Of a stretch of DNA of 64,000 nucleotides, positions 5,199-6,910 are shown piece after piece (positions within the stretch are counted from its first letter, which is position 1; each line of letters opens with the position of its first letter). This DNA is from an uncultured Actinomycetes bacterium (GTDB lineage: Bacteria; Actinomycetota; Acidimicrobiia; IMCC26256; DASPTH01), in contig CAWIHV010000007.1 of NCBI GenBank assembly GCA_963835985.1, positions 281,975-345,974 of the forward strand, given 5' to 3'. Under the pieces are notes generated by a model. That model was not told where the DNA came from and searched no databases. It was given only the letters and a program-made list of their open reading frames with translations. The position numbers were made by a program, and so were the translations under genes.

Positions 5199-5307
5199 GT
5201 TCATCGAGAGCGGTTGAGGGACAGGCCCTGTGACGCCGCGGCAACCAGCACGACGACCGACCACCGGGGTCGGGAGGGTGCCAGGTGCCAATGCCTGAAC
5301 GATGAGC
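5199..5307 (+). promoter_or_regulatory. SAM-I (S-box) riboswitch aptamer
   Basis: GUUCAUCGAGAGCGGUUGAGGGACAGGCCCUGUGACGCCGCGGCAACC...GGUGCCAGGUGCCAAUGCCUGAACGAUGAGC. P1 pairs GUUCAUC with GAUGAGC. The conserved GAGGGA, GGCCC, GCAACC and GGUGCCAAU blocks are present. It lies 82 nt upstream of the ThrC-like start. Confidence 0.85.
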
Positions 5308-5388
5308 AGTCCGAGAGCGGTCCTCCGCTCGAGGCGCTCGAGAGCGCGTCGAGGTCGCCGGGAACCCGGCTGAACGGAGGAGACCCTC

Positions 5389-6630
5389 ATGGCCCACGTG
5401 CACGGACTGCGATGTCGGGAGTGCGGACGCGAGTACGACGTCGCGCCGATCTTCACCTGTGAGTGGTGCTTCGGCCCGCTCGAGGTCGCGTACGACTACG
5501 ACGCCATCCGCGCCGCGGTCAGCCGGGAGAAGATCGCCGCGGGCCCGCTGTCGATCTGGCGCTACGCCGACCTGCTGCCGTCCGACCGCAACCCGGCCGT
5601 CGACCTCGGCGCCGGCTTCACGCCGCTCGTGCGGGCCGACCGCCTGGCCGCGGAGCTGGGCCTCGGCGAGGTGTGGATCAAGAACGACACGGTGAACCCC
5701 ACCAACTCGTTCAAGGACCGGGTCACGTCGGTCGCGCTGTCGAAGGCGCTCGAGTTCGGGTTCAAGGTCGCCGCGTGCGCGTCCACCGGCAACCTCGCCA
5801 ACTCGGTCGCGGCCCACGCCGCGCACGCGGGTCTGCGCAGCTTCGTGTTCATCCCCGCCAACCTCGAGCAGGGCAAGGTCGTCACCACCGCGGTGTACGG
5901 CGGCAACGTCGTCGCCATCGACGGCAACTACGACGCGGTCAACCGCCTCTGCGCCGAGCTCGCCGGCACGTACCCGTGGGCGTTCGTCAACGTGAACGTG
6001 CGCACGTACTACGCCGAGGGTTCGAAGACGCTGGCGTTCGAGACCGCCGAGCAGCTCGGCTGGGAGGCACCCGACCACGTCGTGGTGCCCATCGCCAGCG
6101 GCTCGCTGCTCACCAAGATCCGCAAGGGCTTCGACGAGCTGCACAAGGTCGGGCTCCTCGACCAGGAGCCGAACATCCGCGTGTCGGGTGCGCAGGCCGA
6201 GGGCTGCTCACCGGTGGCGCGCGCGTGGCTCGACGGCGTCGACACCATCAAGCCGGTGAAGCCCGACACCATCGCCAAGTCGCTCGCCATCGGCAATCCC
6301 GCCGACGGCTACTTCGCGCTCGACGCGGTGCGTCAGAGCGGCGGGGGGCTCGCGGCGGTCACCGACGACGAGATCGTCGACGCGATGAAGCTGCTCGCCC
6401 GCACCGAGGGGATCTTCGCCGAGACCGCGGGCGGCGTCACCATCGCCACGCTCAAGCGCCTCGCCGCCGAAGGCATCGTGCGCCCCGACGAGCGCGTCGT
6501 CGCGTACGTCACCGGCCACGGGCTCAAGACGCTCGACGCGGTCGAGCCCAGCGTCGGTCCCACCGCGGCGATCTCGCCCACCCTCGACGCCTTCCACGAG
6601 GCGTTCCCACCCGACCAGATCCAGGAGTAG
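5389..6630 (+). CDS. threonine synthase-family PLP enzyme with an N-terminal zinc-ribbon (MetM-like candidate)
   Basis: Intact 413-aa ORF. It has N-terminal CRECG...CEWC, ...NDTVNPTNSFKDRVTS... with the PLP lysine context, and ...ACASTGNLANS.... Confidence 0.85.
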   Translation: MAHVHGLRCRECGREYDVAPIFTCEWCFGPLEVAYDYDAIRAAVSREKIAAGPLSIWRYADLLPSDRNPAVDLGAGFTPLVRADRLAAELGLGEVWIKNDTVNPTNSFKDRVTSVALSKALEFGFKVAACASTGNLANSVAAHAAHAGLRSFVFIPANLEQGKVVTTAVYGGNVVAIDGNYDAVNRLCAELAGTYPWAFVNVNVRTYYAEGSKTLAFETAEQLGWEAPDHVVVPIASGSLLTKIRKGFDELHKVGLLDQEPNIRVSGAQAEGCSPVARAWLDGVDTIKPVKPDTIAKSLAIGNPADGYFALDAVRQSGGGLAAVTDDEIVDAMKLLARTEGIFAETAGGVTIATLKRLAAEGIVRPDERVVAYVTGHGLKTLDAVEPSVGPTAAISPTLDAFHEAFPPDQIQE

Positions 6631-6634
6631 CTCG

Positions 6635-6910
6635 ATGGCCGTCACCGTCCGCATCCCCACCCAGCTGCGCGAGCTCTCCGGCGGCGCCGCCGAGGTCACC
6701 GCCGAGGGCGGCTCGCTCGCGTCGGTCCTGGAGGGCCTGGAGACCGCGCACCCCGGATTCCGGGAGCGCCTCTTCGACGAGCAGGGCGAGCTGCGCCGCT
6801 TCGTGAACGTGTTCGTCGACGACGAGGACATCCGCTTCCTCGACGGGGTCGGCACCGAAGTGAAGGACGGCGCGACCGTCAGCATCGTCCCCGCCGTCGC
6901 CGGGGGCTAG
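6635..6910 (+). CDS. MoaD/ThiS-family sulfur-carrier protein (C-terminal GG)
   Basis: Intact 91-aa ORF that starts 4 nt after the ThrC-like stop and ends ...TVSIVPAVAGG*. It has beta-grasp length and the diglycine terminus. Confidence 0.85.
   Translation: MAVTVRIPTQLRELSGGAAEVTAEGGSLASVLEGLETAHPGFRERLFDEQGELRRFVNVFVDDEDIRFLDGVGTEVKDGATVSIVPAVAGG

Follow-up and report, generated by a model that had tools for sequence, protein, structure and literature searches.

We analysed a 64-kb window from an uncultured Acidimicrobiia bacterium (assembly GCA_963835985.1, contig CAWIHV010000007.1, positions 281,975 to 345,974 of the forward strand; "the window" denotes this whole stretch of 64,000 nucleotides). 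On its plus strand lie, in order, an S-adenosylmethionine (SAM) riboswitch aptamer of the SAM-I or S-box type (5198-5308), an expression platform (5309-5388), a metM-like gene for a 413-residue pyridoxal phosphate (PLP) enzyme of the threonine synthase (ThrC) family (5389-6630) and a metO-like gene for a 91-residue beta-grasp sulfur carrier (6635-6910). The whole window was scanned with cmscan against Rfam 15, which gave three matches above their gathering scores, RF00162 being one of them, and the Pfam scans covered about 60 of its open reading frames (ORFs). Relatives came from a scan with one genome per species, which returned 310 relatives of the enzyme, and the best 80 of these 310 loci were examined. 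All 80 belong to metagenome-assembled genomes labelled Acidimicrobiia, Actinomycetes or Actinomycetota, a few of them bearing implausible Bifidobacterium labels, and enzyme identity among them is 81-96%.

A conserved riboswitch, enzyme and carrier unit

The RF00162 match runs from 5198 to 5308 on the plus strand and is full length (model positions 1-108), and its 67.1 bits exceed the gathering score of 44.4 (E-value 1.8e-13 for the whole window). The initial annotation of this DNA had read an S-box aptamer at 5199-5307, and its P1 strands and core motifs were found where it had put them. P1 pairs GUUCAUC (5199-5205) with GAUGAGC (5301-5307), the helix extending over about 5199-5206/5300-5307, and encloses the cores GAGGGA (5216-5221), GGCCC (5224-5228), GCAACC (5241-5246) and GGUGCCAAU (5284-5292). 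P2 carries a GA-rich internal loop, and P3 is long and variable. We aligned 76 related leaders and judged covariation against 500 shuffles. The junction motifs GAGGGA, GCAACC and GGUGCCAAU were invariant, 85.4% of the cells in the aptamer helices were paired, and both the covariation score and the number of double-change cells exceeded those of all 500 shuffles, mostly through P3. The gathering score of RF00162 was also passed in 19 of 20 related loci tested (61.7-82.9 bits), the 20th being truncated by a contig end that removes its 5′ half. The leader contains a genuine S-box aptamer, which is predicted to bind SAM.

A P4 helix is usual in the classical four-way junction of SAM-I riboswitches, and the related SAM-I/IV variant lacks it. 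In the cmscan alignment of the window the six pairs of P4 are deleted, and all 76 related leaders are likewise without this stem. We therefore place the aptamer in the SAM-I clan (CL00012) as a P4-less form, apart from the classical S-box with four helices.

The carrier gene lies directly downstream of the enzyme gene in 77 of the 80 loci, the remaining three stopping at contig ends, and S-box core motifs are present upstream in every locus whose contig reaches that far. Since this linkage is kept across relatives, the riboswitch, metM and metO form a conserved unit and are not chance neighbours. The 64-kb window holds no paralogue of either gene.

The ThrC-family ORF that the initial annotation had placed after the aptamer is intact (5389-6630, PF00291 with an E-value of 4.7e-72). 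The predicted CxxC...CxxC motif is formed by Cys9, Cys12, Cys24 and Cys27 at the N-terminus and resembles a zinc ribbon (Cys4), while the Schiff-base lysine lies in the motif NPTNSFKDR. The enzyme has in common with canonical ThrCs (2ZSJ, 1UIM, 6CGQ and 2D1F) the PLP core of fold type II and the lysine motif SFKD, and its substrate is probably the same, O-phosphohomoserine. The solved ThrCs, which are about 350 residues long and have no N-terminal zinc ribbon, align to it from residue ~55 only, with 190-223 bits. Relative to them the enzyme has an extra 55-residue N-terminal Cys4 extension and an insertion of 7-9 residues near residue 280. Compared with four solved bacterial ThrCs, PVGNAGN is changed to PIASGSL and NPTGSFKDRGM to NPTNSFKDRVT, and the window's enzyme lacks the canonical ThrC sequence signatures.

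A search with the enzyme against 1.84 billion cluster representatives (50%-identity clusters) gave scores of 266-529 bits for the best 150, the number considered. The full-length ones among these align from residues 1-8, and the zinc ribbon is therefore shared. These alignments place the enzyme in a zinc-ribbon subfamily distinct from the solved ThrCs. Both motif changes are also found in a 58% identical homologue from the cultured Micromonospora coriariae (LT607412.1, L081 7855-9287). RF00162 matches upstream of that gene with 69.2 bits, ending 11 nt before the ATG, and no MoaD-like or other carrier ORF lies downstream of it; the M. coriariae carrier must be encoded elsewhere or shared.

The carrier ORF begins 4 nt past the TAG of the enzyme and was recovered, as first annotated, as an intact 91-residue MoaD/ThiS-fold protein ending in GG. 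It matches PF02597 (ThiS) with an E-value of 3.5e-15 and NCBIfam SAMP1 with 60.3 bits, and its terminus, ...PAVAGG, is common to most of its orthologues. The closest solved relatives are the CysO proteins 4N6E_B from Amycolatopsis (1.7e-23) and 3DWG_C from Mycobacterium tuberculosis (1.1e-22). Both align end to end, and the carrier is ~55% identical to these CysO proteins over its full length. The MoaD and SAMP1 structure entries gave 2.6e-08 or weaker. In sequence, the carrier is thus CysO-like rather than MoaD-like. A GGAG at 6624-6627, within the 3′ end of metM, precedes the metO start, and translation of metO is probably coupled to that of metM.

The window's MetO and most orthologues stop exactly at Gly-Gly. 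About ten MetO orthologues (L012, L013, L021, L023, L024, L025, L028, L036, L063 and L072) carry one to four residues beyond it (M, A, C, AC, AG, CEG, EGP, CTGA or CDVC), which a protease of the JAMM/Mec type would have to remove.

Probable role in homocysteine synthesis

In Streptomyces albulus, O-phosphohomoserine is converted to homocysteine by a thiocarboxylate pathway with MetO, Mec, MoeZ and MetM, as summarised in the GapMind 2026 preprint on the basis of Hasebe et al. 2024. The same summary describes MetM as a ThrC homologue that is often misannotated as threonine synthase, and MetO as a sulfur carrier. A SAM riboswitch upstream of S. albulus metM is mentioned in PMC12172450, again following Hasebe et al. 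2024. The Streptomyces precedent that the initial annotation had named, a MetM/MetO pair making homocysteine from O-phosphohomoserine, is on record in this literature. The assignment is repeated in a passage of a 2026 preprint, where B. subtilis ThrC and MetM are given as 33% identical.

The window contains the features of a MetM-type locus: a ThrC-homologous PLP fold with its lysine, a metO partner and an upstream SAM riboswitch. In the terms in which the published summaries describe it, the S. albulus arrangement matches that of the window feature for feature, including the GG-type carrier, the "threonine synthase" label and the encoding of the MoeZ and Mec helper functions elsewhere. The two differ in other respects. 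The host of the window belongs to an uncultured Acidimicrobiia lineage, not to Streptomyces; its MetO ends at Gly-Gly and would need no trimming, whereas the GapMind summary lists Mec for MetO maturation; and its aptamer is P4-less and is followed by a 29-nt invariant block.

We consider it likely, with good confidence, that the window encodes a SAM-repressed two-gene operon that makes homocysteine from O-phosphohomoserine with protein-bound sulfur by the MetM/MetO route, and the enzyme is accordingly proposed to be a thiocarboxylate-dependent homocysteine synthase. The initial annotation had favoured this route over threonine synthesis, and the conserved linkage, the CysO-like carrier, the zinc-ribbon subfamily and the literature all support it. 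The substrates and the thiocarboxylate chemistry are ones that we infer. The C-terminal Gly-Gly of MetO would be adenylated and then thiocarboxylated by a MoeZ-type E1/rhodanese protein encoded elsewhere in the genome. MetM, a PLP enzyme with the ThrC fold, would remove the phosphate from O-phosphohomoserine and then join the MetO thiocarboxylate at C-gamma. An acyl shift and hydrolysis would free homocysteine, probably via a Mec-type JAMM protease (compare CysM/CysO/Mec of M. tuberculosis), and methylation of homocysteine would yield methionine.

Several observations weigh against this assignment. Among the ~60 ORFs scanned with Pfam, none has a ThiF/MoeZ (E1) or JAB/Mec domain, in line with the earlier remark that an E1-like activator is missing from the window; mycobacterial MoeZR serves CysO and MoaD alike and is unlinked to both (PMC3227635). 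The same ORFs include no hom, thrB, metX or metY, and it is the absence of hom and thrB that counts here. The enzyme passes TIGR00260, the NCBIfam threonine-synthase equivalog, scoring 296.5 bits where 167.1 are required, and automated annotation names it ThrC for this reason. Orthology to S. albulus MetM and MetO is indirect as judged from sequence, and a second homologue search, made for Streptomyces relatives of the enzyme, returned Micromonosporaceae only. Finally, Microcystis aeruginosa PCC7806 also has adjacent ThrC-like and MetO-like genes. Its enzyme is 51.6% identical to MetM, but the locus has no SAM riboswitch, and the enzyme acted as a threonine synthase and threonine deaminase in vitro and did not raise methionine in vivo (PMC12172450). 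Our confidence is limited because the comparison with the characterised proteins is not a direct one, because of this cyanobacterial counter-example and because only 64 kb of the genome are at hand.

The pair might instead make cysteine, with O-phosphoserine and a thiocarboxylate of the CysO type as substrates, and so be functionally analogous to CysM/CysO of M. tuberculosis. ThrC-fold enzymes can take O-phosphoserine, as cysteate synthase does, and S-box riboswitches control some cysteine genes in Firmicutes. The cysteate-synthase model TIGR03844 matches the window's enzyme weakly, however, its 74.8 bits lying far under the cut-off of 324.9. The carrier's best solved matches being CysO proteins also speaks for cysteine, and the M. 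tuberculosis CysM/CysO/Mec/MoeZ system (3DWG; PMC3227635) follows the same logic, in which an O-phospho amino acid and a protein thiocarboxylate meet on a PLP enzyme and the E1 is unlinked. In the window, by contrast, the partner has the ThrC fold and not the CysM/CysK fold, its expected substrate is O-phosphohomoserine, and the operon stands under a SAM riboswitch. No CysM/CysK-type protein and no mec adjoins the carrier gene. The characterised ThrC-like, carrier-dependent enzyme uses O-phosphohomoserine, according to the summaries cited above. We regard a cysteine-forming pair as unlikely.

A genuine threonine synthase under SAM control, with a small protein unrelated to its chemistry, is what the database labels suggest. 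Every close database homologue that bears a name is called "threonine synthase", the TIGR00260 match points the same way, PRK08197 gives 302.2 against 303, and the MetM-like cyanobacterial enzyme made threonine in vitro. Shutting off threonine synthesis with SAM would, on the other hand, make no regulatory sense; at the O-phosphohomoserine branch point in plants, SAM activates ThrC. The fixed position of the carrier gene directly 3′ of the enzyme gene, the lack of a hom or thrB context in the window, the motifs that differ from those of the four solved bacterial ThrCs and the additional zinc ribbon argue further against it, and we judge it quite improbable that the enzyme makes threonine. The warning in the initial annotation that a "threonine synthase" label would mislead is thus supported, given that MetM is often misannotated in this way. 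That the 91-residue protein is the MoaD of molybdopterin synthase and stands beside the ThrC-like gene incidentally is very improbable. In its favour are the MoaD/ThiS fold, the terminal GG and the lack of a second MoaD-like ORF in the window, where moeA, moaA and moaC occupy 41.5-44.7 kb and neither moaD nor moaE was found. Against it, these molybdenum cofactor genes are 35 kb away with no moaE adjacent to the carrier, MoaD structures match the protein at 1e-8 to 0.16 against 1e-23 for CysO, and its gene sits 4 nt from metM behind a SAM riboswitch, a position kept in 77 of the 80 relatives. The CysO-like sequence and the fixed position also argue against a carrier that serves the molybdenum cofactor genes in addition to MetM.

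Expression platform and switching model

SAM-I riboswitches are OFF switches on methionine, cysteine and SAM genes. The platform of the window (5309-5388) was delimited from the alignment of the 76 leaders and from folding with ViennaRNA in two states, one with P1 enforced and one with the 3′ strand of P1 blocked. It begins with a local hairpin (5315-5320/5325-5330) that includes the pyrimidine stretch UCCUCCG (5321-5327), a candidate anti-Shine-Dalgarno sequence. An invariant block follows at 5325-5353, with the hairpin CUCGA-G-GCGCU-CGAG-AGCGC-G-UCGAG, then a variable GC hairpin (5357-5370) and the Shine-Dalgarno sequence GGAGGA (5376-5381), separated by 7 nt from the ATG at 5389. The initial annotation had proposed translational OFF control from the complementarity of UCCUCC (5321-5326) to this GGAGGA.

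The complementarity stands, and folding of the window agrees with it. With P1 enforced, two helices form, one between UCCUCCG (5321-5327) and CGGAGGA (5375-5381), the other between GAGCGG (5315-5320) and CCCUC (5384-5388), and the invariant block folds as a hairpin of its own. With the 3′ strand of P1 blocked, the segment 5192-5208 (5′ flank plus 5′ strand of P1) is paired to 5337-5351; the local hairpin sequesters the anti-Shine-Dalgarno sequence. Mean accessibility of the window's Shine-Dalgarno sequence, as the unpaired fraction, rises from 0.24 in the first state to 0.38 in the second. Across the 76 leaders, at least 7 nt of the ribosome-binding site are paired to platform blocks in 64 with P1 enforced and in 40 with the 3′ strand blocked. 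The long-range helix between the 5′ strand of P1 and the invariant block is pairable in ~100% of the sequences, with two C-G to U-A compensations.

The relatives also hold evidence against this mechanism, and here the earlier proposal found no statistical support. Shine-Dalgarno accessibility across the 76 leaders does not differ between the two states (0.41 and 0.43; Wilcoxon p 0.25). Only 48 of 81 leaders, the window's counted in, have a CUCC-like anti-Shine-Dalgarno sequence next to the invariant block, and in one clade the partner of the ribosome-binding site is the 3′ side of the invariant block instead of the CUCC motif. The helix between anti-Shine-Dalgarno and Shine-Dalgarno sequences is 72.5% paired, its columns are near-invariant, and it gained no support beyond the shuffles. 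The covariation of the long-range helix did not exceed the shuffles either, because its columns are too invariant to be informative.

Translational OFF control is our best reading of the platform from these folds, and the exact relay of switching is one that we infer. When SAM is plentiful, it would bind the aptamer and P1 would close. GAGCGG-UCCUCCG (5315-5327) would then pair with the ribosome-binding region CGGAGGA...CCCUC (5375-5388), turning off translation of metM and, through coupling, of metO. When SAM is scarce, the segment 5192-5208, which holds the 5′ strand of P1 together with its flank, would pair with the invariant block (5337-5351), the local hairpin would hold the anti-Shine-Dalgarno sequence, and the ribosome-binding site would be freer. 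Classical B. subtilis S-box leaders share the ligand-binding core, the P1-P3 architecture and the OFF logic on a methionine-pathway operon. The window's leader differs from them in having no P4 and no U-tract terminator, in its predicted control at the ribosome-binding site and in a predicted competitor that pairs with the 5′ strand of P1 and not with the 3′ strand. No U-tract terminator was found in 5309-5388, where the hairpins have no U runs behind them.

Three other arrangements were tried and rejected. An AUG within the 3′ strand of P1 opens a 23-codon ORF (5302-5373) that could encode a leader peptide, but in other clades it stops after four codons. In a simple switch model whose sole competitor was the 3′ strand of P1, Shine-Dalgarno accessibility did not change. 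A P3 pseudoknot between GGGAGGG and UCCUCC was dismissed as well, as GGAGG is not kept in the closest relatives.

The 29-nt block CCGCUCGAGGCGCUCGAGAGCGCGUCGAG (5325-5353) is almost invariant in the 76 leaders, with insertions confined to hairpin loops. Together with ACGCGCUCAUC (5195-5208), the 5′ flank of P1, it is near-invariant although the proteins are 81-96% identical. The two can pair with each other, and their conservation is far greater than is usual for an expression platform. An E-value-level Rfam scan of 5100-5450 returned, besides RF00162, only noise and no family for the platform. Within the window the block's exact 28-mer (≤3 mismatches allowed) occurs once, and a looser 15-mer search gave GC-rich noise.

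The hexamer TAACGT at 5180-5185 on the plus strand is a candidate −10 element by sequence reading, from which the transcript would start at ~5192. Of 78 related leaders, 62 have a TAnnnT hexamer no more than 24 nt 5′ of the conserved ACGCGCUCAUC. A sigma-70 consensus scan returned nothing.

The P4-less aptamer, the invariant platform and the predicted competitor for the 5′ strand of P1 make up the only element of the locus that is potentially new. A more far-reaching proposal, which we hold to be possible but doubtful, is that the leader represents a distinct P4-less S-box design, recurring almost base for base across Acidimicrobiia. In it, ACGCGCUC (5195-5202) plus UCGAG would pair with GAGCGCGU/CUCGA of the invariant block (5337-5349), the block thereby competing with ligand-dependent P1 formation for the 5′ strand, and mutually exclusive hairpins would pass the signal to the ribosome-binding site. 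As part of the same proposal, MetM/MetO, rather than an acyl-homoserine route, would be the main or only source of homocysteine in this abundant uncultured class.

Genomic surroundings, sequence quality and significance

The genes around the operon are not related to methionine. A trehalose-synthase-like glycosyltransferase and a glycerate kinase are encoded on its upstream side; it is followed downstream by a convergent IdeR/DtxR-type repressor gene (6991-7648, minus strand, from the Pfam scan and the relatives) and a 2-oxoacid dehydrogenase E1/E2 cluster. Between metO and the repressor gene lies a perfect inverted repeat (6938-6976) whose 16-bp arms flank a 7-nt loop, likely a bidirectional transcript end without a U tract.

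Further away, an amtB-glnB(PII)-glnD nitrogen-regulation cluster occupies 17471-20806 on the plus strand, and a tRNA is found at 46995-47068, also on the plus strand. RF03169, a variant of the c-di-GMP-II-GAG riboswitch, matches 42850-42934 on the minus strand with 46 bits against a gathering score of 40 (E-value 8e-06). It sits in the 680-nt gap between moeA and moaA, antisense to both, with no obvious minus-strand gene downstream. A sulfur-trafficking trio on the minus strand (49719-51847) encodes DsrE/DsrF-like and DsrC/TusE-like proteins and a flavin-dependent (FAD) pyridine nucleotide-disulfide oxidoreductase, possibly forming a persulfide relay.

Compared with intact orthologues, including some in Illumina-based assemblies, the genes neighbouring the operon contain single-base insertions outside homopolymers, at a density near one per 0.7 kb within the first 13.5 kb. 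Sites lie near 2422, 2959, 3061, 3404, 7156 and 9365 (window positions 100-13500), and groEL (11851-13496) passes through three frames. Further split or truncated genes are found at 29017-29712, 34947-37365, 40243-41121 and 41563-42375, with L002, L003 and L006 as reference relatives. Since natural decay would mix deletions and insertions, these changes, nearly all of them +1, suggest an artefact of the sequence or its assembly. The stretch from the riboswitch to the end of metO (5198-6910) has zero insertions relative to its closest relatives. The chance that 1.7 kb escapes at this rate is ~0.1, so intactness by itself says nothing about selection.

The pathway and its linkage to a riboswitch have already been published (Hasebe et al. 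2024, Appl Environ Microbiol 90:e01247-24), and the window opens no new question about them. Its contribution is to extend the reach of MetM/MetO, described in 2024, past Streptomyces to uncultured Acidimicrobiia, together with a conserved regulatory RNA. In Acidimicrobiia and Actinomycetota, hundreds of "threonine synthases" encoded behind S-box riboswitches are probably homocysteine synthases, which would correct a systematic misannotation. This would affect how the methionine pathway is reconstructed, gaps are filled and auxotrophies are predicted for the abundant uncultured Actinomycetota of soil and freshwater.

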